A DNA stretch of 64,000 nucleotides from Bispira polyomma (taxonomy: Eukaryota), in contig OZ287751.1 of assembly GCA_965649765.1 (NCBI GenBank), positions 99,572,001 to 99,636,000 on the forward strand, in the 5' to 3' direction. Of the stretch, positions 7,024-64,000 are shown one piece after another. A model generated the notes under the pieces. It was not told where the DNA came from. It saw nothing but the letters and a program-made list of their open reading frames with translations, and ran no database searches. The position numbers were made by a program, and so were the translations under genes. The stretch's first letter is position 1; each line of letters starts with the position of its first letter.

Positions 7024-7285
7024 TTTGGATTTGAATTTTAATTGGGATATTTAACGTCCACTCTAGTACCTGTTTAGGTTATATTGGGACGGGTAGTTGG
7101 AAACGCTGGAGAAAACACTGCATAGAGTTGATCAAGGTTCTGCACTGAAACCAGAGGCCCACATTAAGGAACTACCACCTTTCCTACATAGGCATTGATG
7201 GGATTCGAACTCATGCTGCCCAGAGGTGAGAGACCAGTGATTGTGAAGCGCAATGCTTGCTAACCACTAGGCTACCATGGCCCCC
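7024..7285 (-). mobile_element. Full-length tRNA-derived SINE, same family as 4860-5111
   Basis: Reverse complement of the 4860 copy with intact A and B boxes (TAGCCTAGTGG, GAGTTCGAATCC). Confidence 0.9.
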
Positions 7286-8176: not shown

Positions 8177-8214
8177 CACACACACACACATATATATATA
8201 TATATTTATATATA
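8177..8214. repeat. (CA)n(TA)n microsatellite at the Y1 gag end
   Basis: Directly visible. Confidence 0.85.
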
Positions 8215-10521
8215 CGTTATAGTACTGACCACCAGTGACTTGTTGGAAACTTGTAATTTCCTTTCCAAAAAAGTGACATGTAAGTGGCCCCGATTAGACT
8301 GTGGCCTTTTTGGCACTCCCTATCCCCCTGGCCCCAGAACTAGATGCCGACGTGCTGGGACTGATATCCCTCTGGGCATTGGCCCTACGGATCTGATTGA
8401 ATTGATCAATATCTATCAATGTCCAGTTAAATCTGTCCATTTCCATGTTGGTGATGACGACAGTATGGCAAGCCTTGGCTGCGTCCCTTCAATAAAACTT
8501 GCCATGCAGTCCAACATGGCTGTTTTCATTTTAACATTTGTCTCTTCATGTATAATTCTAGTAAACCCACAGACCTACTGAATAACGGTTAAATCATCAT
8601 ATGGGGCCTAGCTTTTAAAGCATCTGTTAAAACATGATTGGGTGGCCAATCTACTGCCTGTTTGACTTGTCCCTCGGTAGCGCCCCCGCATTATGAATTT
8701 TTTCTACATTTAGAGGGGCTCACCGTTATGCTACAAGAAATTTATGTTAGGGACAAAACAATTCTTGGTGCTACCCTTGTAGCCATCGCCAGAGTATACA
8801 GGTGGATTACTTGATACAGAAATACTGGCTCGAGCCAGTTTTATGCTGCCAACGGCGCCTGTGTGATCTCCACTGGTTTGTCCATTTTTTCCATCTTTTG
8901 GATCATCAATAATGACTGCGTCCTTATAGCTTGCAATAATACCGATTGCTCACCATTCTAAGTACAACTAAGCAGGATGTCACTCTTTTGAGAGTCGGCT
9001 TCCTGAACGGACAGATCCAGCATAATCAAACAGTTATGACCAGTAAGTGTCTCATGTTTTTCATGAGCATTTGCTACAATGTACCAGTTTAATCCGTAAA
9101 AGCAAAGTGAAATTAAAATGGCTGATTTTAATATACCACGTTTTGTTACTTGTAGTCCCGTACACTCCCTGACATAAATGGCAGGAAAATTTTGTGAGGG
9201 CGTGCTTTTATACTCGTATACAAACCCCTTAGATTTCTTGTCTGATACCCCAGCACTGAGGCTAGTATCGCCGAGGCGTTACCTTTTATTCATGGCCGCT
9301 GGGTGTTACAGTTAATTTTATCACTCAGTTCCTATCAGCCACGAAAACGTCATACTACATCACAGTGGATAATAAAGATGTTAACATTTAGATGTTAAAG
9401 ATGTTTACGTTTAGTTTTCAGTAATGAAAGGCTTTTGAAGTGATATATGACTTTCGCAAACATTTTCAAAGCTTATATCAATTCTCCTTTTGTGAGGTGT
9501 GGCAGATGTTTGCTCTTCTATAACACCGTTAAATCAATTTTTTGTATATGTTTTTTTAATACTCCATTTGAGCTTTTACTGCAGCTTTACTAAAATATAC
9601 ATCTACATGAATACAAATTAGTCTATTCCAACATGAAAAAAAGCATTTGGACAAATAATAGGGGTGTCAACTAATAGTCAATAGCCAACAGACATTGTAA
9701 CTAGGACTAAATGTGTCATTCATTTCTACTTGTACTAAGTACTAATAACATTAAGACTGTGTAAAACAAAACAGTTCACTAATGCTATAGCAATTACACA
9801 GAAAAGGTTCTCAATATCTATGAGAAGTATTATTACATTAATTCCTACAAAAAGCTGTTGTTTCCTGCTTCATAAGTGGTAAATCGTTGAGAGAAATATT
9901 TTTAAATGATGCATTGCTGACCTTTACCCAGCACTTGCTCGGACAACATAGATTACAGAAATCTGTGTTATTCTCTCAGTGGGCCAAATGGACCACTTCA
10001 CTCTTCTAGACAGACAATTCTCTCCTTTTAGGCTATAAGTAAAGATTTGATACACTAAACTCGGTTTTATCTGTCCGACTCATTTCGGTCACACTTATGA
10101 TATGCCACGAAAATAAGTATATTTTAGGTTTAAACATGCCTTTGCAGATTAAGTCCCTGTACTCCTAATGGTATATTCAATAAAACAATTCTGTATTAAA
10201 GAATAATTGCACTAACTTAGACAAATAATTTAGATAACATTTTTCGCAGGTTTTGTTATTTGACAAAAAACACATTTCAGACAACCTTATATTGTTGATG
10301 GTTGAGTTTGATTCAGAAAATTATACCCCTATCATTCTTTCTTTGTGACAGTTTTAGTCTGAAAAGCAAATGAGAACATTTCCACCACTTGTGTGACATT
10401 ATCAACTGGACAAGTTATTGATTTCTTCTATTTGACAACTCTGATTACATTTGGATTAATTGGTAACTTTACCCAAGAGAGTGTTGTTATACTATATTCC
10501 ATTGTGATGGACAGAAGACAT

Positions 10522-25247: not shown

Positions 25248-25464
25248 CAGTCTCCCTTTCGTTAACCCAGCATTACACTTCAAGTCTTTCCCGGGTCAGA
25301 TTTGTCTGTCCCGGGTAAAGGTGATAATAACGTTAAGATTTTAGTGAAGTAGGAAGTAGATGTAGGAAGTCAGACGTTGGTTTGGGAAATTTATTTTACA
25401 CATTTCATATATCACAACTTTACAAATTTTAAAAGATTTAAAACTTTTAAAATTTTATGCCCAA
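25248..25464 (-). repeat. Y3 split direct repeat B2 (217 bp)
   Basis: About 7 mismatches to 26097-26313 by eye. Confidence 0.95.
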
Positions 25465-25858
25465 TACATATTAACATGGTCAACAAGGACCCAAGAAAAA
25501 GATAATACATAGACCATCTATAAGGTACGTCTATAATAGTATTATAATGTATACATGTATAACATTAAAAGTTACAGATAAAATATAAAACATTCATATA
25601 TGCACTGTGTTCCCTGTGCGAGATGGGTTTGAGGAAATATTATCATTCTATGTAATTACTTATTTCTCTCTGGGGTGGGAACCCGGCACCCGCGGCACCT
25701 AGTCGCCTAGCAGAAGTTCCTTACTTCCAGAGCCTCTATTCTACCCTGGCTTGCCTAAGGCTCAGGGGAAGGTATAGAAGTAAGGATCATTCCACACGGT
25801 GTCTGGGTTCCAACTACCCAGGCAATATAGTAATAGTTATGATAAGGGTGGTGGGCGG

Positions 25859-26096
25859 GAGAGATTTATACTGACTTTCCTCTCTGGTTTCTAGAATTAG
25901 AATGACCAATATATGAAAAGCTGGGGCCAAACCCAGCTCAGCACATGGCTTTTATTACGTTTCATTGGTTGGGGCATTGTCACCTGTCTGGTTGTCACCC
26001 CATACAGTATTCTAGTATATTTGTGCTAACAGTAAAGGGTTATTATTTGGCGACTGAATTGTCATGCAATTGTTATATCATTTGCAGTGACTGTTA
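25859..26096 (-). repeat. Y3 split direct repeat A2 (238 bp)
   Basis: About 7 mismatches to 31503-31740 by eye. Confidence 0.95.
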
Positions 26097-26313
26097 CAGT
26101 CTCCCTTTCGTTAACCCAGCATTACACTTGAAATCTTTCCCGGGTCAGATTTGTCTGTCCCAGGTAAAGGTGATAATAACGTTAAGATTTTAGTGAAGTA
26201 GGAAGTAGATGTAGAAAGTCAGACGTTGGTTTGGGAAATTTATTTTACATATTTGATATATCACAACTTTACAAATTTTAAAGGATTTAAAACTTTTAAA
26301 ATTTTATGCCCAA
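26097..26313 (-). repeat. Y3 split direct repeat B1
   Basis: Lies immediately after the YR stop and abuts A2. Confidence 0.95.
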
Positions 26314-26324
26314 AAGCCAAAAGT

Positions 26325-27303
26325 TTAAATAGAAGAGGGGATAAGAGCCGCAAATGTGGAAGGGATAATTGAAGCTGCATGTGTTGTTGCCTCAAGGAAT
26401 TCCCAAACCACGTCTGACTTCCAACATCCATGTTTTTGAATATCTTGTAATTTTATATTTTGGTTGAAGGCTAGTAAGGCTCCTGATCGCCTAAAGCAGT
26501 GGAAGGAGTGACCTTGATGTGGGATTTGTAAGGAGGTCAGAATTCGTTTCAGTATTTCTCTGAGTCTAATGTCTGATACACATTTGCCTTCTATTCTGGG
26601 GTCAGCCAATAGAGGTGACATTGGAGAAAGAGGGTATTTTCCAATGAGAGAGGTCACTGCTTTCACTGGGCAGAACCAAGGATTTAGTAATTGTGGTAAT
26701 TGTATAATGTTTGGTTTAATCCTATTCTGATTTGTCTTTGACCACTTAATAATTACATGTAGTCCGGGTGATGCCATGATGACATCCGCCCTAGTAAGAT
26801 GTCTGGTAGGGTAAATTTTTTGTCCAGAAGTAGGTGTAAGATTTGATATTCTTAGGAAGCCATTGAATGCCATTAAAAAGGCTGTTCTATATAGTTCTGG
26901 AAATGGCAGTTTTTCACAAGCTTTTGATATGTCTTGTAACTGGTGCAGGTCAAAGATTCCTTTAATTTTGGTGAGTATGTGGAGGATAGTTCTAGTGACC
27001 TCAAGTACAATGCTATTCTGGGATCATTCAAACTTGTGTTGCCAATATTCAACAATTTGCAGTTATGTCTCACTGCTGATAGGTAGTTGTGGCTAACCTT
27101 ATATGATTTGACTGAATGTTGTAGAAATTCCAAAAAGGAAATGATTGAACTGAAGTTGAATGGTTCAACTAATTCATAGTATATGGTAAATGCAATATAA
27201 AGCCTGAATTGCTTATCGTTGGTTTTTCTAGTCTTTGGTCTGTGGCTTTTGGCCAATCTTTCTGTCGCCTGTCGCAGCAATGGTCTGATACTGTCTGGCA
27301 TGT
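26325..27303 (-). CDS. Y3 tyrosine recombinase (one frameshift near 26950)
   Basis: ORFs 26873-27301 and 26325-26873: AFNGFLRISNL (R), SKT (K), HSFHCFRRSGA (HxxR), HGCWKSDVVWEF; the catalytic Tyr appears replaced by Phe. Confidence 0.92.
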
Positions 27304-27368
27304 CTAAAATTAAAAAGTGTCGTCCATTATTAACATGCTAAGTGGAGTGTCTTTCATTATAAAGTTAT

Positions 27369-27839
27369 TTAGAATAAAGTCTTTACTTTGGTCTGTACAT
27401 TGATTTTGTCGTACCATCTAGAAAGAGTATCAGCCAGGACATTGTCCTTTCCCTTAATATGTTGTATGTCTAAGTCTATGTTTAATTTTGCACATATTAA
27501 CCACAAGTTTCTTAGACATAAAGCTAAATGACTGTCTTTAGTACGTGATGACTGCACCACTGATACCACTGCCATGTTATCAGCCATAATCCGTATTTTT
27601 TTATTTTCTAATTCTGTGCCCCACGTCTTAAGGGCTATAATAACGTCAATCATTTCAAAGTGTACTATCGATAAGCCGTCTTTTATAAATGCTGGAATAG
27701 GGGTTTTAAACACGTAATCATTATATACTCCTCCTATGCCAGTTAGGCAAGCGTCAACGTGTATGATGGCATTATGACTTCTCATGTCACCGTGATATTT
27801 TACTGTACCATTAAATTGTGCTAAAACTTTACAAACCAT
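27369..27839 (-). CDS. Y3 RNase H domain (frameshifted from RT)
   Basis: HVDACLTGIGG, HFEM, ADNMAVV, HIKGKDNVLADTLSRW. Confidence 0.92.
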   Translation of the reverse strand: MVCKVLAQFNGTVKYHGDMRSHNAIIHVDACLTGIGGVYNDYVFKTPIPAFIKDGLSIVHFEMIDVIIALKTWGTELENKKIRIMADNMAVVSVVQSSRTKDSHLALCLRNLWLICAKLNIDLDIQHIKGKDNVLADTLSRWYDKINVQTKVKTLF

Positions 27840-28900
27840 TGCAAATCTTTATGAAAATCATTGGTCAATGTAACAAATTTATTGCTAGTTGAAGTTCGCA
27901 AAAGGGCTAGCATTCTGTTTAGAAATATGCGAGATGGCTTTATGCATCTATAGACATAAAGAAGTTTGCCAAGTAATGATTGGTATTTGTTTTTCTTCAC
28001 TTTACTTAAGGTTGTAAATTCTATGCAAATTGCTATGATCGAATTTAATTTTTCTTCATCAATACTTATTGTCTGCTCGTCTATATCTATAGTTATGCCC
28101 ATACACGTGACACACTTTCCTGGTTGGACCAGTTTTTTCCCATTAAAGGGTAGACCTAGATCGTGGAGTATTTGCTGTAGTGTTTGGTAAGCTAACTCTG
28201 CCTTATCTTCCTGCTCACAGATAATAAAATCGTCGATGTAGTTAAAGATGCAGAACCCTTTCTGCTTAAGAATATAAGTCACTGCGTCCGAAATTTTTAT
28301 AAAAATCACCGAGCCGTGGGTGAGGCCAAAAATTAGACTTAAATCGATGTACCACTTATTATTCCAATAGTATCCGAGTTTTAAGCAGTCAAAAGGATCA
28401 ATCCGGATATTCCTAAATGCATGCGCGACGTCCACTTTCGCCAATGTCACCTTGTCACCTAATGTCAGTAGTTTCGAAGTAATTTGGTCTAAAGTGGGTA
28501 ATCTTAAAACAAAGTCTATATTGTCATATTTATTCTTAAGTGTATGGTCATTGACAGATGCACCTTGTGGATGAGACAAGTTCAGTATCAATCTTCGCTG
28601 GTCTATATCCTTAGGACGTGTTAATAATGGGGAACAATGGAAGTCGTCATGTATGACGTCACTTATAGGACCAATTATAGTTCCCTTGTTAACTTCGTCT
28701 AGAAAGTACTTGTCAATTGTGTCTGGGTATATTTTTGCAAAATAGTGGTTTTTAATCACCTGTGTGTTAAGTCTATTCCTATCATAGAGGGATATGAGGA
28801 AACCAAATTCGATGTAAGTCACCAAGGACTTATCATAATAGTCTGTTAGGTAGTGTTTCCATGCGTCAATATTAAGGTTTGATTTAATTGGTATTCTGGC
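27821..28900 (-). CDS. Y3 reverse transcriptase
   Basis: ORF 27821-28825: SPLLTRPK, KVDVAHAFRNI, LIFG, YIDDF, CMGITID, QSLLGKL. Confidence 0.95.
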   Translation of the reverse strand, partial: ARIPIKSNLNIDAWKHYLTDYYDKSLVTYIEFGFLISLYDRNRLNTQVIKNHYFAKIYPDTIDKYFLDEVNKGTIIGPISDVIHDDFHCSPLLTRPKDIDQRRLILNLSHPQGASVNDHTLKNKYDNIDFVLRLPTLDQITSKLLTLGDKVTLAKVDVAHAFRNIRIDPFDCLKLGYYWNNKWYIDLSLIFGLTHGSVIFIKISDAVTYILKQKGFCIFNYIDDFIICEQEDKAELAYQTLQQILHDLGLPFNGKKLVQPGKCVTCMGITIDIDEQTISIDEEKLNSIIAICIEFTTLSKVKKNKYQSLLGKLLYVYRCIKPSRIFLNRMLALLRTSTSNKFVTLTNDFHKDLQWFVKF

Positions 28901-28912
28901 TGCTTTATAATT

Positions 28913-29926
28913 CTAGATACCTGTCTCCTTTATAATGTCAGCTATGTGTGTCAATTTTTCATAAGTATCTATATTTACTGGCTGTCTATCTGGGCCAATA
29001 AAAGTAGGGTCCTTTACAGTATGAGGTATGAATCCATACAGTCTGTCATCTACATGGTGTATTTGTCCCGAGTCCAAGTCCTGAGTATCCCTTAAATGTT
29101 GTTCAATATGAATATCTACAACGTCCTGTTTCAATGTTTGCTGTATCTGTATGTTATCATTACTTTGTGTGTTTATCTGTTTGTTTTGTTGTGTATCTTT
29201 AATAGGTGATACCCATTGCATATTTTGTTGCTTACATAATTTATCTATAATTGCAATGTAGTAGCTTGCCTTACTTATTTTTGTACGGCAATGTGTGTTC
29301 TTAGCCAAAGTTGTTGTTTGATTTAATCTGTGTGTGTTCTTGGCTAAATGCTTGTTTTTTGTCAGTTTGTAAGTTTGTATGTATATTTTTGTTGTTTGTA
29401 AAAATTGTACGGGCCATATGTGGTCCAAAGTATGGGTATTTTTACACCACTGAGTACTACCATTAATATTCATTAATGAGTAGACTCCTGAAAATTTTGT
29501 ATCTGTTTTAGACACTAAGTAGTATAGCATATCAGTATCACAATGACCCCATCTTGTGGAGGCATATATGTCTACATTATGATAACTATATAACAGGTTG
29601 TTAGCACATGCAAGACTGAGGTTAGGTACAATGTTCTCATGTGTGACATCTGTCATATCTTTAAAATTTACAATATTATTGACATTATTTACATCATAAT
29701 ATACTTGATGAGAAAAGTTCCCATCACTTGCTAACATTTCCTTGCCTTTATGTAAAATGTTGGCATTGTCATTTTTGGTATTAACACTATGTTCTGAAAT
29801 GCAAATTTTTAACTCGAAGTCATTCCCTTTGTCTAAATTGCTAGAATTTATAACTTTTACATTCGTCTCTACAACATTATAATTTCGGCTTTTAGAATGG
29901 TACACTTGAACACTGGTGTTTTCCAT
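28913..29926 (-). CDS. Y3 pol N-terminal extension of unknown function
   Basis: 337-aa ORF in the same frame as RT, separated by one TAG at 28913; ends with YGFIP, a motif shared with other copies (YGFVPL in Y7). Confidence 0.7.
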   Translation of the reverse strand: MENTSVQVYHSKSRNYNVVETNVKVINSSNLDKGNDFELKICISEHSVNTKNDNANILHKGKEMLASDGNFSHQVYYDVNNVNNIVNFKDMTDVTHENIVPNLSLACANNLLYSYHNVDIYASTRWGHCDTDMLYYLVSKTDTKFSGVYSLMNINGSTQWCKNTHTLDHIWPVQFLQTTKIYIQTYKLTKNKHLAKNTHRLNQTTTLAKNTHCRTKISKASYYIAIIDKLCKQQNMQWVSPIKDTQQNKQINTQSNDNIQIQQTLKQDVVDIHIEQHLRDTQDLDSGQIHHVDDRLYGFIPHTVKDPTFIGPDRQPVNIDTYEKLTHIADIIKETGI

Positions 29927-31320
29927 GTGAGTGGTACTTGTGTGCAGTCCGTCTCCCTATGTACTTGGTGTAGTGGTTGGCTTGTCATGCAGGGTGCTTC
30001 TGGATGTGGGTTCGATTTCTTTGTTGTTTTATAACAGTGGGCACATATATGCTTATAGAAGACAGATCCGTTGTCATGGTCAGCCTTGTGGGTACATTGG
30101 TTCTTTTTGAAGTGCTTACAAGGTACTTCATTTCTGTGAGAACTCGACTCCTGTGTGCCAGGGACTGTGTGTGAGATCAACGCTTGTGAGTACGATAATC
30201 GATTTATGCTCCATTTTGCTTCTTCTGCCCAGCTTAAGTGGCCCCCTTTGACGTTGTGCATGTTATGCACGTATGCCCCCCTCGCCACAGGCCAAGATAT
30301 GTTAGCGACGTCTTTTAAAGTATACGAGAGCTGACGTAGCATGGACTGTGCTATCAACTGGTTATTTGTTTCTAATATGTTCTGAATTTGCCCAGCTGCA
30401 AACTGGGCAACTGATAACTCATCATAAGCAATACGTTTCTTATGTAACCCTGTAAGGCAGCCCTCGTTGGGCCATCTCATGGTGGAATCAGAGGTGCAGA
30501 TTTCGGATACGCTGTATCGCCCAAATTTCTTTTTAAAGTTAACTTTACCAGTGAACTGTTCCCCCGTGGCCCATGCCTCGTACTGCGCCAATCTCTGGTT
30601 CACCTGGTTCTGTATTAAGTTGGACTGTCTCAGTACGTCTGCAGTCGGAGTAATGGAGTCGCTAACGTGGAGTTGCTGTGATCCAGCTGTAAAAGCTGTG
30701 GGCGCGTTCGGGTGATAACCTTGCCTTTCCTGTGCTGAAGCAGGGGTGGGTAATAATGACACTTCCCCTGGTGTGGTAAAATTCCTTATACACGCGTCCT
30801 GTCGTGGGGTGGGTAAAAGAGACACTCCCCCAAATCCTAAAATTCCTCCCTGTTGTATATCATAAGAAGACGAACCTGGTTCTGCTGTCATCTGACGTGG
30901 AGCAGGGTTTGGCTGCGTTTGCGTTGCTGTAGCTGGTTGTGAGTTCGGTTCTAACGCGGATCGTGTGTAAGCAACTTCTAAATGCGCCATCCTATCCCGC
31001 TGACTGTCATTCTGTTTTATATCAGAAATGTCTTTTTTAAGTTCATTAACAGTGGTCACTAACGAATCCATTGTATCTTGATGCCTTTGAAAGAGCTCCC
31101 TATAAAAATTGTCATTACTTACACTGTCTGTAACCGTAAAGCCATGTGTCTGTGCCTTCTCTGGCGTGACTTGGTTGCTGGCCCCCATGCCGAGGGATTC
31201 CGGTGAGAAGCAATCCTCTATTTGATGGCTACATCTCAGGCCAACAGGCCTTGGGTGTCGTATTCTACAGTGTGAGCAATCTGCAAGTGATTCCTGAGCA
31301 CGTTTTTTTCCTCTTCCCAT
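29869..31320 (-). CDS. Y3 gag-like ORF1
   Basis: 483 aa; N-terminal CSHCRIRHPRPVGLRC finger, coiled coil, C-terminal CKHF..C..H..HICAHC..H...C finger. Confidence 0.88.
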   Translation of the reverse strand: MGRGKKRAQESLADCSHCRIRHPRPVGLRCSHQIEDCFSPESLGMGASNQVTPEKAQTHGFTVTDSVSNDNFYRELFQRHQDTMDSLVTTVNELKKDISDIKQNDSQRDRMAHLEVAYTRSALEPNSQPATATQTQPNPAPRQMTAEPGSSSYDIQQGGILGFGGVSLLPTPRQDACIRNFTTPGEVSLLPTPASAQERQGYHPNAPTAFTAGSQQLHVSDSITPTADVLRQSNLIQNQVNQRLAQYEAWATGEQFTGKVNFKKKFGRYSVSEICTSDSTMRWPNEGCLTGLHKKRIAYDELSVAQFAAGQIQNILETNNQLIAQSMLRQLSYTLKDVANISWPVARGAYVHNMHNVKGGHLSWAEEAKWSINRLSYSQALISHTVPGTQESSSHRNEVPCKHFKKNQCTHKADHDNGSVFYKHICAHCYKTTKKSNPHPEAPCMTSQPLHQVHRETDCTQVPLTWKTPVFKCTILKAEIIML

Positions 31321-31502
31321 TGTAAGGGATTTTCACTTTTTCATGTGCACTATGTGATGTATATAAACGTCCTCAACACAAAACCACCATAAAAGTATAA
31401 AATTTTAAGCTAAAAACACTTTAACTTCTAAAATTTAATTTCATAAAATATTTTCCAAGTTTTTTTCAATATGGCCGCTATTTAAAAAGGCCTGCATGTG
31501 TA

Positions 31503-31740
31503 GAGAGATTTATACTGACTTTCCTCTCTGGTTTCTAGAATTAGAATGACCAGTATATGAAAGGCTGGGACCAAACCCAGCTTAGCACATGGCTTTTATC
31601 ACGTTTCATTGGTTGGGGCATTGTCACCTGTCTGGTTGTCACCCCATACAGTATTCTAGTATATTTGTGCTTACAGTAAAGGGTTATTATTTGGCGACTG
31701 AATTGTCATGCAATTGTTGTATCATTTGCAGTGACTGTTA
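31503..31740 (-). repeat. Y3 split direct repeat A1 (5' terminus, contains CCAAT)
   Basis: Begins TAACAGTCACTGC on the minus strand; AACCAATG present. Confidence 0.95.
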
Positions 31741-33669
31741 AAGTGATATTTGGCACTGTTGCACTAATTGAGCATCAAATATTTAAAGGTGTTTTTAGGA
31801 TTTTACAGTCGGAGGACCAGCCTTAAAACACATTTGTTGAAGTGTGTTGAAAGTACCAAAATATTTACCCTAAAAAAAAGTTTTTAAAATGACAAAATTC
31901 TCAAAATTTTACCTTTAGTGTCTTAAGATATCGAAGAATATACCTAGATATTTTAGATCTGTGCTGAAAGCTTTACTAAACAGAGTGATAACTCAATTAT
32001 TTCCTTGGTCAGAACATATATATATGAGGAATTTAAGTTTACGTTAAACACTTCAATACAGCCCCAGTTTAAAGTCAAAAATACAATAAAACCTATACTA
32101 TTGGGACAATAATATGTTGTTCTGTTAAACAAAGAGGTTTCATCAAATGGGGAAGGGGTTGCTGTATAAACAATTTGAATCAAACAAATATTCATGTTAA
32201 TAGAAAATTACTACTAAATTGACTTCTCTAGGATTATATACGACTTACAGAAGTAAAATGTAGTACTACTGTACCAACGGGTGACATGTGCTGGTAATAC
32301 TCAATGAACTGGCTCTCTATTGAGATGATAAACTGGTGCCCTAATACTTAATAGACCACAAGCTCAACTCACTTTCATGCTGAAATCTTAAGTACACATA
32401 TCTCCAGCTAGAGTGATATTAGGTCAAATCTGACTGCATATTTGAATTCTGAGATGAAAGCTCTATTAAAATGAATGATCACAAGTATAGGTTACTTTAA
32501 TGTACAAGGACTTCTACATTGACTTTCTGTGAGTTCAGTTAGGGCTTGAGTTATGCAGGGCCCCTGTCCATTAATTGTTTCCATGTGCAACAGAGTGACA
32601 ACTTTATACACCCACACAATGGCCAGCACTGTGTGTGAAAAAACCCCACTAGAGTTAATCATTTTATGGTTAGCCGAAGTGGGGATCCATATAGTATTAT
32701 GTTCCTTTTGCATGTGAGTTTGGGGTTTGAGATTTGTCTTTAACTTTAAATAAAATTTCATGAATAGGAAACTTTTTACTGAATTAGAGAAATTTAATAC
32801 ACATCAATTTAAAATGTAAGGTAAAGTGTATAGATAACAGTAATATAACTTAAGTTTCATTTGTTTACCCTCATTTAACTGGTGTTAATAGATTACCCTA
32901 GGTTTGTGAAGTCATGTCCCCCCAAACGGTAATATCCAGTCGCCCAGTACTCTTGAGAAACACTATAAAACCCGGTTTGATACAGGGTATAGTCATTTAT
33001 TTGCCTCAAGGGATATAATACAAATTAAGATGAACCAAATGGTACTTCAGCCAAACACCTTCAGCAAAATTGTATATTCGGTCAGCTTTGACGACTTCAA
33101 GTTTATATTTTCAAAAGTAATTTTCACATTACTGCAAAAGACAAATCAATATTTAGAGAACAACACATGCCAAAGTATGATATACAGTAATTGTTACCAC
33201 AATTAGAGGCTTAGGAAAATTGGTCGGTCAAAATTACTTTAAATAAGTTCGGTCATGTGTTCATAGTCGAAAATAACAAATTTTCTACTGTATTCCAATA
33301 TTCTACTGTATTTATTGGAATATTATATGTTACTGGATAAGCTATTTTCTTTTATCATCAATCCTACGGATGAAAATGGTCCATGTTTATATAATCAATT
33401 TTACCGAAGCCTTTGGCCAATCAGAATCGCTGACACAGCCGCGTCATGGTAGAATAGGACATAACTATATACTATTTGGCCACAGATTGACTTTTTCATT
33501 TTTTGTTCTTTCCAATGCACCAGTATCACTACAGAGTTATACTATAGTTATAATGTTTGTCCAAAATAGTACCATATCATCACGTTAGTAACTTTTCAAA
33601 ATTCCCTTTAGCCTAAAAAACACCAAATTCAAATATTGAAAAACATATTTTACATAAAACCTTGTCCCA

Positions 33670-33839: not shown

Positions 33840-34334
33840 ATCAACTGGTGGCGGAAACCAGTGCCACACCACAGCCTCTACTATATCATCTTGTATTATC
33901 TGTAAATTCAAATCTATAAATTTTATTTCTTTGATATTTGAACTACAATACCACTATTTTAAGAATATTAAATTATCCAAATTAATAATCACTCTCCCAA
34001 TATATTCTGAGAATAGAGTGTGGGGTATACCCACAGGGGTAGCTAGTTCAGTGCTTAACAGTCTTTTCTTTAACTTACCTGTCACGGGTCATGACCTATG
34101 AACCCCTCTTCTAATTTGTCAGTTTGTACTAATTGACCTAAGTTTTCCCGCTCTTTCTTAGAACCCTCACTTTTTATATTGAAGTCAAGCAGGCAACACC
34201 GCCATTTTTAAATATATTTTACTTATGTTTTTGACTGTTTTATTTTTACAAGTTATGAGTGATTTTATGTTGGACTTACCCAAAGGACATCTCAACTAAC
34301 TTATTGCATGGTGTTACATCTTAAAGGAAGAACC

Positions 34335-36250
34335 ATGATGTCGTGAATATCAATGGACGGCTTGTAAAAATTTGCGTAAATATTTTTAGAAAAGAGTCAA
34401 AAATTACTATCTTATGCCGTTTTTTTTCGTAGGAGATCTACAAAGTTATGTTATTTAGGTGTTACTGATCACTTCTTTGTCATTATAGACATTTATACTG
34501 ATACCCTCGTGCTGTTTCAGCTGTCTGTCACTGTTAAAAATTAAATTATCGCCCACTCCATTTGGCGGGAGTACTATTGATCACTTCATTTTTACAGTCT
34601 TTTTTATATTTGTCAATGTAAATAATTTATAGGTGTTACTGATCACTTCTTTGTTCATTATAGCCATTTATACTGATTCCTCGTGCTGTTTCAGCTGTCC
34701 CTTTATATCTGTCACTGTTAACAATTATATTACGCCCACTCCGCTTGGTGGGAGTGCTATTGATCGCTTCAATTTTAGAGTCTTCTTTATATCCGCCACT
34801 GTTAATAATTATATTATCTCCCTAAATTGTATGAATGTGAATTCTATAACCGTTTTTTATTTTTATTTTTTTTTACTATACTGGCGACCACTCTGTTTAG
34901 TCGGGAGTGCTGGTTGTGTCTGAATTTTTTAGTTGTTTTCTTGAATTTTTTCCCACCAAATTTTATACCATATTATTGCTCACTCCACTTGGTCAGATGT
35001 GCTGTCGAGTTTTTTTACAGAATTCTATTACTGTTTTTTTCTGGGCTGTACTGGCGTCCACTCTGGTTGGTCGGGAGTGCTGTGTTGTGTTTGAATTTTC
35101 TGAGCTGTTTCTTGAATTCTACTTCTGGTAAATTAATTGGACATAGTAATATTAACTACACAGTTCTCTAGAGCTGTTTCTTAAATCTGGTTTTTCTATT
35201 TTTTTGGCTGTATCACTTCTTGAGTATTTGTTCAAACTATGCACCTACTATATGTTTTTGGTGTGATGGTCCTTATCTGGATCTGATCTGTCACGGCCGA
35301 AGATGAGTCGCCGTTACCATATAAACCCTGGATACAACCCTCTTTAATTTCTTCTCTTCACAGAGCTCATGTGGCCATTCTCTGCCAGAGGAAAAATTCA
35401 TATTTCTCAAACAAAGCTCCACATATTTTTTCATTCTGGTCATTTTTTTTTGCTGTCCTTGTCTAGTGACATCCAGGTAAATCCTGGCCCTAAATGCTTT
35501 ATTAAAAAGGCAATTTGGGCAATCTGTGAAGAAGATACTTCATAAAGTTACAGATCCGGTTCTTGACTTTTTCCCTGCTACTCTCCTTGGTAACACCACT
35601 GTTCCCGCTGACAGTGCAAAGAACCTAGGAGTTACTTTTGACTCTGACTTCTTCAAAAAACATGTCTCGAATATTTGTCGTTCCTGCTACGGCAACATCC
35701 GTGACTTTCACAGAATTTGACGTCATTTAACCTAAGAAAATGCCATTGCAGTGGCAAATGCCCTGGTATCAAGTCGACTAGATTACTGTAAGTCACTACT
35801 TTATGGAATTGGAAAGGGCCGAATAAGCAAACTACAAAAAATACAAAATAACCTGTGCAGAATAGTAAGCCTTGCTGGCCCTCGCACTCACAATACTCCC
35901 CTGCTGAAACAATTACATTGGTTACCTATTGAGTTTCATATTAAATTTAAGGTAATTGTCCTTATTTCACAAGAGGCAATCGTCTCTCCACCTCTGGTTT
36001 CCTACCAAAAAACAAGCTGGTTCAAAATCATTCTTAGTTACAGCACCTGCTGAGTGGAATAGCCTCCATACCAGTCTTTGGACTGAGACGAGCATCATGG
36101 GTTTCAGAAAAAGGCTCAAAACACATCTGTATCAGCTCGCTTTTCCACCCTAGCTTGCGTCCGATGGTCACGACTGATTCTCTGATCACAAACCACAGAG
36201 GATGCATGGTCAACAATTGTCACTCTATAAAAGTAAAAACATTAACATTA
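34335..36250 (+). mobile_element. Internally deleted L2 LINE inserted in the Y4 leader
   Basis: Repetitive 5' region, DIQVNPGP at 35468-35491, then directly the RT C-terminus (KNLGVTFDSD, SRLDYC, LHWLP, LKTHLYQLAFPP) and an (ACATTA)n tail. The 5' boundary is approximate. Confidence 0.8.
34457..35200 (+). repeat. Tandem monomers of about 170 bp (built from ~85-bp subunits) upstream of the L2 coding remnant
   Basis: AGGTGTTACTGATCACTTCTTTG at 34457 and 34631; TACTGGCG.CCACTCTG at ~34879 and ~35049; recurring CCACTC..TTGG..GGGAGTGCT. Confidence 0.8.
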
Positions 36251-36467
36251 AGAAACGTGGAATCACTGCTGCTGTATATATGTCGACTCACACTTTTGAG
36301 TCTTGTGAATATATGCTCGTTAGAGCTATAGTAAAGGGACGTATCAATTTTTAAAATCAGTCCAAGTTTGGCTATTTGTTTACATATTTCAGCTAAAATT
36401 TCACGTTCCAATCACATATATATTCACAAGTATCAAAGATCAGGGTATATTTCTTTAGTCAGAGGCC

Positions 36468-37466
36468 ATGACACCAAGGAAACTATACGACTGTACAAAA
36501 TGTGGCAATAAGCATGTTAAACCCATAAACGAGGATTGTAATGGTGATAATACTGAGGACGATCAGACAGAAATGTAGAACTCTGTTTTAGCCAGTAAAG
36601 GTGTGGCCGCTGATGACATTAATTTGCAGATTTTATCTGAACTCAGCGCATTAAGTGGTCATATGACCGTGGTCGAACAGCAGGTTAATCACGACGAACG
36701 TCGAGCCCAGACGTCGGGGCAATCTCGAGTCTGAAAGTTCCAGTACAGAGGACTGCAGCACAGCCCACGCAGACTACAACTTCCCTGGATGACCTGCTGA
36801 TCCCGACACTACAGACACTGCACACACGCAGTCCCTGCAGATGGCTGTCCACTCTCGTCTGAAGGAATTTGTCACTATGAATGAAGCAGGTACGTGCAAG
36901 TCACTATGAGGGAGAACAGAATCTGTTTGGGTAAAAAATAAGATACAGTGGCCTCAAAGTCATATTCTTGGGGGACAGGACAAATCCCGGTTGTCATACA
37001 ACACCCTCTCAATGGCCCAGTGAGTATCAGGCTCTGCTTCTATTGCAAGAGAGGAAAATAATGTTGATGTAAAAAACCAAATTCTAGATTACCTTACAGA
37101 TATTATGGAAGATTTGCATGACTTTTCATGGGCGTCTGCTTAGGGGAGCCATGCAGTTTTTTTATGCAAAATGGAAGAGGGGAAAAATGGCATGAGCAGA
37201 TTCACATAAGATAGATAGGATTAGGAGGGCTTATGCCTAAATAGTTTTTTACAAAATAATTCTACTTGCTATCAGAGCAACCCTAGAAAGAGTCATGACA
37301 AAGGTTTACCGTGTAAATATTACCAGAATGGCACTTGCCCCATAAAACTGAGCATGAGACCAGAGGGGTGACTTATAGTCTAGTGTGCAGTGAATGCTTT
37401 AAAACTGGCCGCTCAGATCCTCATCCTGCAAAAGATTGTAGGAAAAATCCACCAAAAAACCCATAG
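36468..37466 (+). pseudogene. Y4 gag-like ORF1 with many stops
   Basis: Homologous to the Y2 and Y7 gag (MEDLHDFSWASA, PCKYYQNGTC, HPAKDCRKN). Confidence 0.8.
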
Positions 37467-55961: not shown

Positions 55962-55992
<31 letters not shown>

Positions 55993-56404
55993 TTTTGGGG
56001 CCATTGTAACAAAGCAAAATTTTGAAATATCTGAAAATGTAGAAAGCACAATGAAGCTGTTTAATATGTGTTGACTTTAGATGGGTGTCCACTTGATCCA
56101 ATAAACATAACAACCATAATCCTGTGCCTGACAGAGATAACATATTGTGTCCACTTTTTTCTATTAGAATACTTTACCGGAGCCCTAAAACATAAATAAA
56201 ACAACTTAATACCAAATACTTCAAATATGTATTTCTGCATAAGAGGCTTTACAGTGCCCTACCAGTGAAGTTGGGGATTGATTTGGAACACAATAAAAAG
56301 AGGCAAAGTGGGGATATTAGTTTCAATGACTATATTAATCTCTAACATTTATTCATATACTGAGTAAAGGGGCCATTCTAGCACTACGAGTTTAAGTGAA
56401 TGAG

Positions 56405-56597
56405 ATATGGTGACCTTAAATTAAGGCACCGAGAAATTAAGTTAAAAATAGGGTGACCTTAAATTGTGAACAACTTAAGGTGACCATAAAATTTTGGAAA
56501 AAGTAAGGTAGCCTTAACTTTAACAATGAGGTTACCTTAAAGTGTGTAAGATCTTGAATTTAAGGTGACCTTAACTTTTTGATAAGGTTACCCTTAA
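56405..56597. repeat. Array of about 8 TTAAGGTNACCTTAA palindromes with unique spacers at the Y7 3' end
   Basis: Units at about 56407, 56421, 56450, 56475, 56504, 56528, 56560 (perfect) and 56583. Confidence 0.88.
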
Positions 56598-56739
56598 GAT
56601 TTGATAAAAAGTTGTGAATTAAGTTCAAGGTTCAAAAGTAGAGTGGTGAGGTGGTCCCAAACATTTATTATTTAGATATTTAACAGTTGTATAAAAAATA
56701 GTATAGAATAAATGTAAATAAACAACCCTAAAGCCCAAC

Positions 56740-57711
56740 TAGGTAGTAGTGGAGTGTGAAAGGAGGGTCTGGAAAGCCAAGGCCACCTGTTGGGAGTCAT
56801 TATGGTCTTTGGTTATGTATTTCTAGATGCAATCCGACGTCCAGGTGCCATGACTCTGTATCTCTTCAATAGGGACATTACTGTTGAAAGTGAGACACCA
56901 GAACGCCGGAAGGTAATATTAGAATGTTGTAGTCCCAAGCGCTGGAGTATGCTCGTTAGGTTGGCTCGAACTCGAGTGTCAGTCAGTGGTATCCCGGTAC
57001 TATTCTTCTTAAACTGGAAAAGAGGGGAGTCTCTATGGCCTGGTGTAATGGCTAGCAACGCCCTAACTGCTGAAACTGGACAGAGGGGGGGGAGGAAAGT
57101 AAGGTAGGAACTTTTAGTATCTTGGCAGCAATTTTGGACTGCAGTGTCTTAGTCCACTTTATTAAAATGGCATCACCTCTGGCCAATTGAATTATGGGAG
57201 ACAAATGTGAAGCTGCATGGGGAACCAAGTTAGAAATCCTGAGGAAAGAAAAGAATGCTATCAAATACAATGCCTTAAAAACCTGGTCCATATACATTTT
57301 ATCACAGGATTGGATGATTTGGGTAAGGAGGGGTATATCAATAATTCTTCTTATTTTGGCCCTGAAGGGGCTATTGAGCAAGAGTGATTTTTGGTAATAC
57401 CTGATTCTAGGGTCAGAGAAAGCAGAAACATTTAGGCAGAATAACGCCATCTTGGCTTTGATTGCAGAAAGGTAATTGGAAATGGAGGAAGCAGATGCGT
57501 GGTTAACCACTAGCACTTCCAAAAATGATAATAATACAAGTGGGGAAATATGGTTGGTATTTATATGTGCAAAACAGCAGTAAGCCAGGAATATTCTAAA
57601 CATGTTCAAATAGGCTTTATCAGTGGAGGGTCTGAAGGCCTGGTGAGCCCTCTGTGATGCTTCCGTGGCTATCTGTCTGTGAGAGGGCACATCTACAATT
57701 AGATAGACCAA
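56740..57711 (-). pseudogene. Y7 tyrosine recombinase (frameshifted)
   Basis: ORFs 57052-57711 (AFFSFLRISNL, KWTKT) and 56813-57058 (TFRRSG); HGTWTSDCI*KY at ~56815-56851. Confidence 0.9.
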
Positions 57712-60134
57712 TGTATTTTTAGCATACTATTACTCACTTTTACCCACTGTGGATTAGGGACTAGACTTATAAGTATTTTATTTCTATCCTCAGTCAGTGT
57801 CCATCTGGACAGCAAATCTGTCACATGATTATCTCTACCTAGAATGTGAATGATTCTTAAGCTGATGTCCACAGCAGCTATTTCCATAAAGATGTTTCTG
57901 GCTATTGCTGCCAGTGTTAAGTCTTTAGTTCTACCCGAACCCAAGATTGTTACGACTGCTGCATAATCACACTGAATTACCAGTCTTTTGCCTGCCCATA
58001 GGGACTTCCAGACCCGTACAGCTACTAATATGTTGAGCATTTCTAAATGCACAATAATAAGGTCAAGGTAGCCCAGGGAAAGGGAATACTCATATACTTG
58101 GTCATTATACCTGCCCCCGAGTCCTTCAAGACAAGCATCCAGTTGGATGCAGTCAGTGGTTGAGTCATGGTAAAAAAAATGCAGTGCCATTAAACACAGG
58201 CAGAAATTTATTGAACCAATTGATGTCTTGTCTAAATTCAGTTGTGAGTGTGATTTTTTTTGCTATTATCTACTACTCTAAGGACGTCTAACATACAGTT
58301 TATGAAGACACGTGATACTCTGACACATTTTGAAACATACAGTAATTTGCCTAGAAGTGATTGGAGATCCCGTTTTGTACAACTTGGTTTTTTCTGCCAA
58401 TCTTTAACTAGGGAGATGGTTTCTGCTAGTTTTTCTTGGGGCAGTGATACAGTAAAGTTTTCCATGTCTACCAAGACCCCTATACATGTAACTTTTGTAC
58501 CAGGATATACTAGTTTCTTTTCACTTATTGCAAAACCTAATTTTTGTAGCAAGTGGTGCAATGTATCAAATATACGTCTGCTCTCTTGGGCGTTACCGTA
58601 ACCGCTTACGTCGTCTATGTAGTTAGTGACGTCAAAACACTGTGATTTCATAATGTATCTCACGCTGTCACTGAGGCGTTTAAAAATGGCGCTCCCATGA
58701 CGAAATCCGAAGGGGAGGCAAGAATCTACATAGTATTTGTCAAATTTAGGCCTAGCAGGTGATAGTCAGCGGGGTCCATCTTTACGTGACGGAACGCCCG
58801 ACTGACGTCAATCTTCACTGGTTACCAAATTTTACTGGTTACTGTGTCAATTGTGGGAAGTGTGAGTACAAAAGGTGTGTTTAAATATCTGTCCTTTGCT
58901 ACAGCAGTATTAACTGACTCACCGTGTGAATAACTTAAGTCAATAATAACACGGTTTTGTTCTACATGGGAGAGAGGACTGACCCGCTTAAAGTCCATGG
59001 GGAAACCATATCTGACTAAGAAGGGTAGTTGGGAATCCCAATAATTATATTTTTTGAGGTATTTTTCCCAGACATCAGGTTTAAATTCTGACTTCATCTC
59101 AATTTGAGGGCCTATAAAGTTGGGACACTTAGCTGCACTAATGATAGTATGTAACTCAATTAATGTAGCCTGTGAAGTAACCCTTTTATCTGACTCAGGA
59201 ACCTCAATTTCACCTAATGGAACAAAACCGTACTTGTCTGTGGTCTGTGAATTCCATTGCTGGAATATGGGGACGTTATGGTCTTCCCTTATAGGGTCCC
59301 TGTGTTTAGGTCTGAGTTGGAGTTCTAGATCATATTTATCAGCCTCCAGTGTACTTGTTTTACCTGTGGGAGTTGTGGGTGAACCCTTACTTTTGCATTC
59401 GCTGTGGCCTTTTGTTTCTTTTCCAGTATCAAGAGGTTTTGTTTTGGGAATAATCCCATTGTCAATTACACCATAACCCACAGAAAGAGGGGAGAAGCTA
59501 TTGTATGTGGGGACAAAATCTTTGGCACCTTCTCACAGGTGTAAGATAGGAGGACGAGGCTTTGTATAATTGTGTTTTCACACCTTTTCCCCCATCCCCA
59601 TTACCGCGAGTTTTGGTTGATTTTTCCATACTGTCAGGTTTCACACCTATTCTAGGGGAAGGGACAGTGGTACGTGATTTACCCCTAGCAACCACTTTGG
59701 TTACCTGTTTGCTGACAGATCTGTCAGACTTTCCTGAAAGGTTGGCAAAACATGCATGGTTAATACTTTTTTGTAAAACAGTACTGTTTTTCATTGTTAC
59801 ATAACACATTGGAAATTTCACAGTTTGGTTAGTTTCTGAGCCGTGTATACTGGAGAACATGTGGAGTTTGTTTTGATTTACCATTTTTTAAAATGTCCAT
59901 GTAAGATTTCTTTTTGAACTGAGCCCAGTCTGTCCTACAGTGCGCACTGGCTTGAATATTAGCAAAAGTGTTATATACAATTCTACCATGAAATTGTTTT
60001 TCACTATACCTCTCAGTACAAAGTTCATTGTTCATTGTTCTATCATTGAAAACTATGTTTTCACTCCACCTGGTACTTTTGTCCGAATAATCTTGATCAC
60101 TATGACTTGATAGGGGCACTGCATGCCTTACTCG
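57699..60134 (-). pseudogene. Y7 pol (extension, RT, RNase H), disrupted
   Basis: ORFs 59829-60197, 59498-59884, 58822-59481, 58238-58663 (YIDD) and 57699-58190 (LDACLEGLGG..DLLSRW). Confidence 0.92.
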
Positions 60135-60664
60135 TTTTTTGCATTTTTTCTGCAATCCTTTGCAGGGTGGGGAAACGACCGCCCATTCAATATACAATTA
60201 CTACACACATGCAGATAAGTGGTTCCTTTAGTTTCATGATCTCCTTTTTGGGGGCAAGTACCCTTTTGGAAGAACTTACATGGAGTACCCTTGTCATGAC
60301 TTTTCCTGGAGGGGCCTTGTGTTTGGCTAGAGTTTTGGCTGGAATTAATTACCCTCTGGGCATGAGCCCGCCTAATTCTGTCGAGTTTATGGGACTCGTC
60401 CCATGACACCTTCCCCTCTTCCATTTTACAGGATAGGACTGCATGACTTTCCTTGGCCGCACTCCAGGAAAAGTCATGAGCGTCCTCCATGAGGTCCGAT
60501 AAGTACTCTAACATTAAATTCTTGGTTGCAACATTACTTTCTTCTCTAATGATGTTTGAAAAACCAGCGACCCACTGGGGCATTGTTAATGAGTCATACG
60601 AGAGTCTAGTTTTACTATGATTTGTGCCACATTTAAGGCAATCATATGTTTTTCTCAGAGCCAT
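60128..60664 (-). CDS. Y7 gag-like ORF1 with an in-frame internal deletion
   Basis: MALRKTYDCLKCGTNHSK is joined directly to TRLSYDSLTMPQW; the middle part present in Y2 and Y4 is missing; C-terminal finger intact. Confidence 0.85.
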   Translation of the reverse strand: MALRKTYDCLKCGTNHSKTRLSYDSLTMPQWVAGFSNIIREESNVATKNLMLEYLSDLMEDAHDFSWSAAKESHAVLSCKMEEGKVSWDESHKLDRIRRAHAQRVINSSQNSSQTQGPSRKSHDKGTPCKFFQKGTCPQKGDHETKGTTYLHVCSNCILNGRSFPHPAKDCRKNAKNE

Positions 60665-62784
60665 TTGTTATTCTCTGAATAATATAAGAACACTCGCGTT
60701 TTGATACCTGTGTATATACTATTGACTATTAATTTGGATGTAGAAGTGTATGAGTAGAATAGGTCTTAATATAGTAATATAATGTGAGGGGATACGTCCC
60801 TTTATCAGATTTCAGGCAAGCATATACACAAGACTCAAAGTATGAGTACAAAACACCACTGTAGTTGTGACTTCATCTATAGTGTCCAGAACGTCTGTGT
60901 GATCAATCCCAAATATAGTTAGATAGGACAACATGAATAGTTCCAGAGTCTTAACGCAAATTAAAATCACAAACAAAAAATAAAGTAAAAAATAAAAATG
61001 GCGGTGTTGCCCTTTAGACTTCAATACTAAAAGTGATATCCCCACAAAAACGGCGGGAAGACAAGGGTCAATTAGTGCAGAGTTCACCAATTAGCTTAGG
61101 GGTCAAGACCCTGGACTAAACAAATTACTGGCAGCACTGATCTAGCTAGGCCCTGTGGGTCTACCCTGCAGAGTTCGGTATTCAGAGTTCGGTATTTTTA
61201 ATTTTATCTGTGTAAACATTTTATTACTCAGTTGGTTAATGGTAATAATGGTATACTGAGTTGTATATCATTTTATGTTGGCCAACATTTCATATATTTC
61301 TGATTTTCTTTGAGATTATATAAATCAACTCGCCCTATTGAAGGTAGTGTAATTGTGGCCTCTATAACTAGTAATAAAATGATTGGCTTCCTTTGCTGTA
61401 CTCAACACCTTAAGTAACATACTGTAATTGGTAACTTGATACACCAGTTCTTATTTCATAATTAACTATGCAATTAAAAAGAACAAAGAAATACGTTTAT
61501 TCAATACATAATAATAGTTCATTACAAATTTTGAAAAAAAAAAATGATATTAAATGAAAAAGTGTAATACAAAATGTTTTTTGTAAGAAATATACATACA
61601 AGAACACCATAATAACATATTGACCTGTTGACTATTGGTCTTCGTGCTATTTGCCAGTGTCTTCCATAACAGTTAATGTAATCTTGCAAATTATGAAATT
61701 TTACTTTACTTCTCCCCTTTTCCCACCTCTATGTCTGATATTTTCTTTTCTCCAATTTTTCCCTGGGTGTTAGGATTCCCTTTACTGATGTTCATGTTTA
61801 ATGTTTTACTTCTATATATCCCCACAAATGATGACGAGACATCCTAGGTGGCACAATTCCAAGTCAATATGCACAAGAATAGTCTGATATGAGGAAAGGT
61901 TCGCGATCAGAGTTCAGTCATAACCAGTAGATGAACGTTAAGTTGAAAAAGCGAGTTAATATAGACATGTTTTTTTTTTCAAAAGAACGTAATCCTTGTC
62001 TCAGTACAAAGACTGACCGGGAGACTATTCCGCTCAGCATTGATGCAACCTTAAATTTGTTTTAACCCACTAAGCTTTCTTAGTTTCTCTTAGGTTTCTT
62101 TATTGGTACAGCTTTGTCACCATGTCTCCACATGGTGTCTGGGGTCTTTCTTCCTCTATGTGTCTGTCAATAAAAAACAAAGTGTTCCTTATTTTACACC
62201 AGGGATGCTAACACTTTTTCCCTTGGCCCCTGCATTGAATTTTAACTTGCCTTTAAACCCGATTTCGATTGCACAGAGCAATTATTTAGTTACATTTGCG
62301 TCGACTTCCACTATGTAGCTTTGCATAAGTTTAAGCTAAATGCAATGGAGCAGAATTCGAAAGTCACTTGGTCCTTTTTAATAGACAGATAACATTGACA
62401 CATCGTCCTATGATTGTTCTTTTGCAGCATATTTAAGAAAGTTCTTATTTATTTATTGTATTTATTTAAGACAGAAAAAAACAATGGATGAAAAAAAATT
62501 GAAAAAAAATAAAATTGAAAAAAAAAAGAAAAAAACATGCACAAAAATTGTCTTTATACAATACTTAAGTATATACCGTACTCTAAACAAAATGTGTTTA
62601 TGTAACCCTGTGTACAGCACTTTTATCCTTTTGTGATACATTTGAGTTTTCACAAATTTAAATAGAGTGGTAGTACCGGAGAAAAAATATATTAAGTATA
62701 CAATCTGAGTTAAAGACTTTCAAACTTAAGGTTTTGCTAATGAACCCTTCTCAAGTGATGGGAAGTTCCCTTAAACTCTCTCTA

Positions 62785-63559: not shown

Positions 63560-63920
63560 CAGTGCCTCGGGGTTTGTAGAAGCCAATCAATATAACACAG
63601 GAACACATAGCAATGCGGTTAAATATTTATTATGACTAGGCTACATCTAATATTTCATTATGTACAGTTGTAGTACACCCTTAATGTTTTAAGGTCACCA
63701 TAGCTTGAAGTTCAAGTTTTTCAAGATTGAAAACAAAGGTGACCTTAATGGATTGAAAATGAGGTCACCATAGCTTGAGTTTAAGCAAAGGCAACCTTAA
63801 ATTTTGAAAATGAGGTTATCCTAACCTGAATGAGTTTAAACAAAGGTAACCTTAAGTTTGAAGATGAGGTTACCCTAACTTGGGTCTAAGTTGATGAAAA
63901 GTTGAAACAAAGGTGACTAA
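63560..63920 (-). mobile_element. Solo 3' end of an array-type YR element (terminus plus ~8 palindromes)
   Basis: CAGTGCCTCGGGGTTTG at 63560 resembles the Y1 terminus CAGTGCGCAGGGGTTTC; palindromes at about 63691, 63736, 63761, 63788, 63812, 63843, 63866 and 63909. Confidence 0.8.
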
Positions 63921-64000
63921 ATGACACATCCGTACTCAAAAGTCACATTAACAATCCTTTTATCAGAGGCATTATTTGATCTATGAATAAGGAGACTACC

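Follow-up and report, generated by a model that had tools for sequence, protein, structure and literature searches.

Complementary ends are carried by Y7, a copy of a tyrosine recombinase (YR) retrotransposon in a 64,000-nt stretch of Bispira polyomma DNA (GenBank assembly GCA_965649765.1, contig OZ287751.1, positions 99,572,001 to 99,636,000 of the forward strand; the whole stretch is here called the window), and by two other complete copies, Y1 and Y2. In each, an arm at the 3′ terminus pairs with an arm just inside the 5′ end. Arms at this spacing are also present at the junction between the B1 and A2 repeats of intact relatives with split direct repeats, and Y7, Y1 and Y2 contain no B1-A2 of their own. 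The reading that we prefer, and to which we give about an even chance, is that the complementary ends are the halves of an inverted repeat that straddles the B|A junction and is common to split-repeat Ngaro-like relatives, and that this repeat is a folded single-stranded DNA (ssDNA) site cut by the YR.

The window is AT-rich and dense in repeats, and translated searches find several YR retroelements in it. These elements and the terminal features of Y7 are placed as follows:

56252..61171, minus strand: Y7, Ngaro-like YR retrotransposon copy, with its 5′ end placed at 61169-61174
56252..56273, minus strand: 3′ arm of Y7, with GCACTG at the 3′ terminus (B end)
61121..61139, minus strand: 5′ arm of Y7, CAGTGCT plus an element-specific extension, about 30 nt inside the 5′ end
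61143..61166, minus strand: inner hairpin of the Y7 head (GGTAG, CCC-ACA-GGG, CTAG)
4191..9288 (5′ end approximate), minus strand: Y1, with arms at 4191-4210 and 9241-9258 and the end layout of Y7
11656 (approximate)..16748, plus strand: Y2, with arms at 11685-11697 and 16735-16748 and the end layout of Y7
34019..37448, plus strand: Y4, head and gag only, with arm CAGTGCT at 34049
about 44600-48900, minus strand: Y6, with its tail cut
25248..31744, minus strand: N, a relative with canonical split direct repeats, which served as positive control
63560..63921, minus strand: tail fragment of another family, ending in GCACTG, truncated and without a head

The repeats of N (A, 242 bp; B, 217 bp) are about 97% identical, and its B1|A2 junction (26097-26100) folds back on itself.

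The arm sequences that a first-pass annotation of this DNA had quoted for Y7, Y1, Y2 and the 63560 tail are all found where it had placed them, and a fourth head with the same motif occurs in Y4 (34024-34054). All four heads read GGTA, a small hairpin and then CAGTGCT, and all four tails end in GCACTG; the inner hairpin motif, common to the four heads, is predicted to fold within the arm duplex. When the head is taken to start at the T five bases before GGTA, the spacers measure 31, 30, 29 and 30 nt. At 13-20 nt the arms exceed those of most split-repeat relatives, and past the hexamer their extensions diverge between elements, with 2 to 10 of 16 positions identical. The pairing was compared with shuffles in which both hexamers were held fixed and the 16-nt extensions were shuffled. 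With RNA energies, the pairing of Y7, Y1 and Y2 was equalled by 88, 7 and 75 of 2000 shuffles, respectively (Fisher p 6e-4); with DNA energies the counts were 70, 35 and 222 of 2000 (p 4e-3). Among the six permutations of heads and tails, the cognate assignment is the best. By plain sequence score, 39, 55 and 696 of 1482 site pairs equal Y7, Y1 and Y2, and Y2 alone is not significant. The co-variation claimed by the first-pass annotation thus stands as an element-specific complementarity above chance, although three pairs are too few for formal covariation. Folded singly, heads and tails are no stabler than their shuffles (8/8, z −0.9 to 0.8). A ribozyme was considered by eye and dropped; Rfam gave no match at gathering score.

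The positions of the ends were drawn from flanking sequence. The 3′ flank of Y7 matches a paralogue (22435-22511) up to 56256 (E 3e-12). At the 63560 fragment, paralogue similarity stops at 63559 (20/22, E 0.004), which supports the terminus that had been proposed there, whereas the supposed solo end proves to be a 362-bp truncated tail without a head. Read depth at 63601 is about 265, compared with about 13 for a single copy. Contig depth in run X1 is at background below 56085, about 150-1300 over Y7 (against about 15) and near background above 61157; because depth is high across Y7 and at background outside it, the Y7 family is multi-copy at an identity of at least 80%. At the 5′ side the paralogue resumes best at 61185 or at its 14-bp duplicate, 61171, a weak match (26/50) that is the best of 6040 ungapped starts (runner-up 25) and is not the best once gaps are allowed. 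Since this empty-site comparison favours 61171/61185 only weakly, the 5′ end is given as 61169-61174. In an alternative register both ends share CTG (61171-61169); it suits Y7 and Y2 and was rejected because the paralogue does not fit it. The flank at this junction carries one further feature:

61169..61196, plus strand: 14-bp tandem duplication at the Y7 5′ junction

It lies without a difference in a single-copy read contig (61120-62489) and was possibly made during integration. N and Y elements both end in ACTG, N and Y7 both start with ACT plus a differing fourth base, and the overlap of targets or flanks with the junction is limited to 1-4 nt. On its broken side, the 63560 fragment abuts, within about 4 nt, a segment (63922-64000) that is 79% like the 3′ flank of Y2 (16753-16832), and both segments hold similar short open frames on the minus strand; a shared target, an old shared insertion or a microhomology deletion are possible explanations.

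Motifs that resemble transcription signals lie inside the arms, together with an array of palindromes:

60995..61060, minus strand: promoter-like motifs of Y7 (TTCCCGC, an A/T box and, about 30 nt later, CGCCATTTT), with a predicted start at about +170
56288..56353, minus strand: poly(A)-like signal of Y7, with AATAAA 102 nt and TGTGT 41 nt before the 3′ end
56409..56592, no strand: array of six GGTNACC palindromes in the Y7 tail
4308-4402, 16540, 44607-44849 and 63693-63874: GGTNACC arrays of the other Y tails

We take the Y7 head motifs to be E2F-like, TATA-like and YY1/initiator-like, and the terms promoter and poly(A) signal are likewise our assumption for these head and tail motifs. The A/T box stands about 30 nt before a CCATTTT at +169 to +185 in the Y heads, with the boxes of Y1 spaced otherwise; the promoter-like motifs are predicted about 140 nt downstream of the 5′ arm. 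Predicted poly(A)-like signals lie upstream of the 3′ arm: three of the four tails have AATAAA 72-102 nt and TGTGT 40-41 nt before the end, the signal being similar in Y2 and the 63560 fragment and absent near the end of Y1. In N the signals are inside as well: A has TATAAAT at +231, and an AATAAA precedes the B end by 148 nt. If these predictions hold, the RNA would lack both arms, which disfavours the RNA panhandle that had been suggested for the paired ends and implies that a template for the ends is needed. The GGTNACC palindrome is concentrated in the five Y tails (17 of the 23 copies in the window, within 2091 bp in total) and is missing from the N tail; its AAGGTCA form resembles a nuclear-receptor half-site.

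The same arm geometry is found in relatives that have their split repeats. A scan of metagenomes for related loci returned 43, several of them with direct repeats. The YRs of these loci are distant, with 24-45% identity over the best long segments, and fall outside the Y clade; viral contigs gave one weak related locus and then none, and prokaryote genomes gave none. The tails of 26 loci and of N were scanned for inverted repeats, and 11 junctions, placed from the repeats, were scored. At six of these, a perfect arm of 8-9 bp ends at the B1|A2 junction and has its partner 30-32 nt inside A (by family: L010, L012 and L014; L019 and L034; L018). Near-perfect arms occur in L031 (8/9, spacer 30, one base further on) and in N (7/8, spacer 40), the split-repeat element of the window thus showing the geometry in a looser form. 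The background for at least eight perfect pairs at a spacer of 28-33 is 0.0004 of 82,212 positions. The letters of the arms vary by family and the pairing is kept (AAATAATT/AATTATTT, TAATAATT/AATTATTA, ATAGTAATT/AATTACTAT and GCACTG/CAGTGC). Because the geometry recurs at the B1|A2 junctions of relatives, the pairing in Y elements can be regarded as a junction feature shared by Ngaro-like elements, here in split form, and the suggestion of paired YR arms, the other half of the earlier proposal, fits this evidence. Among 36 loci examined, none carries the GGTNACC array, and GCACTG within 1.5 kb after the YR occurs in L038 only.

The predicted folds share one layout. The joined ends are predicted to form an outer stem that ends at the junction, an internal loop of 4-5 nt, an inner stem and a loop, with the crossover atop the outer stem. 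DNA folding z scores range from −1.3 (L014) to −4.2 (N), and Y ends joined in silico score −1.4, −2.4 and −2.9. Two further loci, L007 and L008, show the same layout after the YR (z −2.6 and −5.2), at junctions that are not fixed by repeats. The L008 hairpin (829-896) is very stable, with z −5.2 as DNA and −8.4 as RNA, and is located about 230 nt after a YR gene and upstream of a gag gene; it would make a suitable model substrate. In the split-repeat relative L039 (7595-7662) the junction folds otherwise, into a hairpin centred on the junction itself.

A sequence of events can be proposed from these folds. After reverse transcription, the junction would fold in single-stranded complementary DNA (cDNA), its two stems standing in for two recombinase boxes as they do in the attC sites of integrons. 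Exchange with a target offering 1-4 nt of microhomology would then split the fold, so that after integration one arm would form the 3′ terminus of the element and its partner would lie about 30 nt in from the 5′ end. The Y copies may stem from circles with a single junction or from B1 × B2 recombination of B1-A2-B2 masters; such copies could not rebuild their own ends, and a circle with one junction would still serve the YR as a substrate. A junction fold that divergent Ngaro-like families keep in structure rather than in sequence offers a short defined substrate with which folded-strand and duplex recombination can be told apart, and it doubles as a rule for calling the ends of elements.

The coding regions of Y7 follow the order gag, reverse transcriptase (RT), RNase H and YR, and every one is broken:

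60128..60667, minus strand: gag-like open reading frame 1 (ORF1), C-terminal part with a Cys/His cluster
57699..59532, minus strand: RT/RNase H region, split over three frames
56739..57726, minus strand: tyrosine recombinase, with frameshifts and one stop

ORF1 of Y7 is 51-66% identical to that of Y2 and Y4 and 31% identical to that of N, and has no Pfam match; the RVT_1 match of the RT (E 3e-4) is below cut-off. Between the end of the RNase H frame (57699) and the start of the YR frame (57726) there is no room for a methylase, and a Pfam search gave no Dam match in Y7. We therefore call the Y copies Ngaro-like: they have the coding features of Ngaro (a gag-like ORF, RT/RNase H and a downstream YR, with weak Pfam matches in Y7), as do the intact relatives, they lack the split repeats, and they have none of the features of DIRS1. 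In a quick YR tree (66 rows, without a named reference Ngaro; L037 and L040-L044 were excluded as short, and L001 had no match), Y1, Y2, Y6 and Y7 form one clade with all 24 chosen ENA proteins (SH-aLRT, an approximate likelihood-ratio branch test, 99). N and the repeat-bearing loci fall outside this clade, which sits among direct-repeat relatives. A total of 220 close proteins are known as protein sequences alone, without genomic context. A close relative of the recombinase has a eukaryotic cluster as its nearest in the Atlas, with Mollusca commonest among the 5 of 55 members whose phylum is known.

Self-comparison and local alignment against shuffles were used to search the three complete copies for repeats. 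No direct repeat or match resembling an internal complementary region (ICR) was found for the heads or tails of Y7, Y1 and Y2 once the palindromes of the tail array and three marginal matches in Y1 (scores 31, 25 and 25 against null maxima of 30, 26 and 25) are set aside, whereas the control N scored 80-444 against null maxima of up to 38. The absence of A/B split repeats, and of a DIRS1-type long inverted terminal repeat (ITR) plus ICR, that had been noted in these copies is therefore borne out. Decay is an unlikely cause in Y7: 0.53 of its 31-mers are found in read runs, a rough indication of about 3% divergence from its family, which is near the divergence of the N repeats. The third type of end structure that had been claimed is supported only in part: the ends are element-specific and lack the known repeats, but the same arm geometry occurs at ordinary split-repeat junctions. 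Elsewhere in the tails, 16 nt are identical between Y1 (4493-4508) and the start of B1 in N (26304-26319). In split-repeat loci the B repeats open with a GGG tract that also seems to be retained in Y1 and Y6, and many relatives have a TTTGG(G) motif after the stop of the YR; this site is a candidate for plus-strand priming.

Several observations weigh against a folded ssDNA site as the substrate. The register of the Y heads (the T before GGTA) was picked partly for the fit of the spacer and partly from the paralogue, and neither strand of the Y arms folds consistently better than the other. The arm is missing at three of the 11 junctions (L035, L039 and L017); the six perfect cases amount to three families, two of which are sister groups, and the arm was already in view when the L018 junction was placed. 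The z scores of L010, L012, L014, L019, L034 and Y7 are modest (−1.3 to −1.7). The YR of the intact relative P0001 is predicted to have a Cre-like fold (model confidence, pLDDT, 85; best match Cre, E 1e-7), and Cre is an enzyme of duplex DNA; there is no integron integrase among the structural matches listed for the model. A sequence search of the PDB gave no match.

The collapsed-copy part of the reading meets further difficulties, and these are also what favours its strongest rival, in which the Y clade is an autonomous lineage without split repeats whose end-to-end fold joins the ends for circularization and integration. Internal B1-A2 is lacking in all three complete copies, which belong to different and divergent families; no internal junction stands at any head or tail in the window, and no A-B solo was found there. 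Y7 looks young (by the rough estimate above), about as young as N, which retained its repeats. Among the joints listed for the Y7 family, 15 of a total of 169, none leads from about 61170 to 56252; their summed depth reaches down to 188 compared with about 105 for one copy, or roughly the depth of two copies. The greater length of the Y arms points the same way. Set against a repeat-less lineage is the occurrence of the fold in split-repeat relatives, where it is no replacement for the repeats, together with the predicted start and poly(A) signals that put both arms outside the RNA, and the 16-nt match and apparent GGG tracts in Y1 and Y6; moreover, read contigs drop rare forms and three copies are a small sample. 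We consider such a lineage unlikely, though it survives best among the alternatives, and collapse is the probable explanation for the missing repeats. A broader form of the idea, in which a widespread invertebrate YR clade lacks terminal redundancy, the fold-back of the ends closes ss cDNA and the hairpin is a general, undescribed integration substrate of Ngaro elements, appears still more doubtful. A Y clade truly without split repeats would add a third type to the two-type scheme of YR retrotransposon ends (PMC6681497; this and the other papers cited by PMC number are represented here by excerpts). If the clade does have them, the Y copies are collapsed Ngaro-like insertions of the ordinary kind, and one structural detail is what is new about them.

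It is improbable that the arms are binding sites for the recombinase or an accessory protein in a double-stranded circle, about three helical turns apart and never paired with each other. A spacer held tightly at 29-32 nt across families would suit such sites, but known YR core spacers are 6-8 bp, and one-sided bulges, G-T pairs and an inner hairpin in most spacers suit pairing better. The targets, moreover, have no arm. The Cre-like YR favours double-stranded sites, as does the classical model, which integrates a double-stranded circle (PMC7192593). More improbable again is that the hairpin serves as an RNA signal (for pausing, priming or packaging) at the internal B1|A2 of a master, with the halves merely left at the ends. 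The junction would lie within the transcript of split-repeat elements, and with RNA energies the sense strand folds better than the antisense in 11 of 11 split-repeat loci, though not in N; against this, the left arm stops at the recombining base, which an RNA signal does not need, and the Y arms have no strand preference. A chance match or an eroded DIRS1-type ITR can be dismissed as highly improbable, given that the 40 occurrences of CAGTGC/GCACTG in the window, partly from a SINE-like repeat, and the weakness of Y2 alone are outweighed by the combined p values (6e-4 to 4e-3) and a fixed position in four heads and four tails, and that there is neither an ICR nor a methylase and reported DIRS1 ITRs are at least 66 bp (PMC3266345).

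Other repeats in the window surround these elements. A repeat resembling a short interspersed nuclear element (SINE) is present in high copy; judged by eye its head resembles a tRNA, and it contains a GTTTACAGTGC...GCACTGGTTTC segment. It raises the background of the hexamer and makes up most of the loose ends among the read contigs; two inverted copies (4860-5115 and 7029-7285) lie within Y1. The tail of Y6 is cut near 44605, where RT-like sequence (44149-44605) follows directly; this sequence belongs to a YR element that is older and more distant and has its YR remnant at 42985-42601. RT remnants resembling those of long interspersed nuclear elements were seen by eye, from translations, at 10675-11145 and 49400-50500. 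The YR elements are inserted into collinear paralogous blocks of 64-80% identity with broken reading frames, which may be an old duplicated gene or a decayed repeat.

4860-5115, 7029-7285, 38300-38500, 54290-54380, 55400-55490, 40515-40610, 20585-20680 and 1015-1100: SINE-like repeat
415-2400, 9433-10491, 20961-22511, 41234-42413, 50781-52054, 54540-56256 and 62053-62758: paralogous blocks

Reviews describe, in the excerpts, two end types only, ITRs with an ICR or split direct repeats (PMC6681497, PMC13465315, PMC4157794, PMC3783388, PMC3266345). Ngaro belongs to the DIRS order and has the arrangement A1-[ORFs]-B1A2B2 (PMC4157794, PMC9210276, PMC8547959); Ngaro types are reported from bivalves and gastropods, without end details in the excerpt (PMC10294476). 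No description of the junction hairpin was found in the literature searched, a search to which the founding papers of Goodwin, Poulter and Butler and Repbase did not belong. The Y elements resemble Ngaro in having gag, RT/RNase H and then YR, no methylase, short end microhomology and the same junction fold as the split-repeat relatives described here; they differ in that Y7, Y1 and Y2 have no internal B1-A2 and no second B, and in tails with a GGTNACC array that N does not have. Xenopus offers a close parallel: many Ngaro-like copies there are without all or part of the split repeats, and the consensus of DIRS-54_XT has none, its repeats being present in only two named copies (PMC9210276). No such repeat-bearing master was seen here, and the Xenopus elements have an extra SGNH hydrolase ORF. 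In Cafeteria, recombination between repeats leaves AB solos (PMC8547959).

DIRS1-like elements share with Y the complementary ends, a short junction core and integration by a YR, but have ITRs of 66-316 bp, an ICR and a methylase (PMC3266345, PMC7192593). In Y the complementarity extends over only 13-20 imperfect nt with one arm subterminal, and no ICR was found in Y7, Y1 and Y2; nor do these three copies show the methyltransferase and split direct repeats of PAT-like elements. The cDNA of DIRS-1 is single-stranded, and its YR specificity is stated to be untested; substrate recognition by YRs of the DIRS order is an open question (PMC7192593). The attC site, which is recombined as a folded single strand, is bacterial and is acted on by IntI with its special I2 domain, whereas the YR here models closest to Cre, and folding is proven for attC and only predicted for the Y junction (PMC4792948). 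The likeness, so far as the predicted folds hold, lies in an imperfect palindrome kept in structure rather than in sequence, in two stems around an unpaired centre and in a crossover with few bases of microhomology (PMC4792948). By this analogy, the junction fold probably acts in ssDNA as an attC-like substrate of the recombinase.

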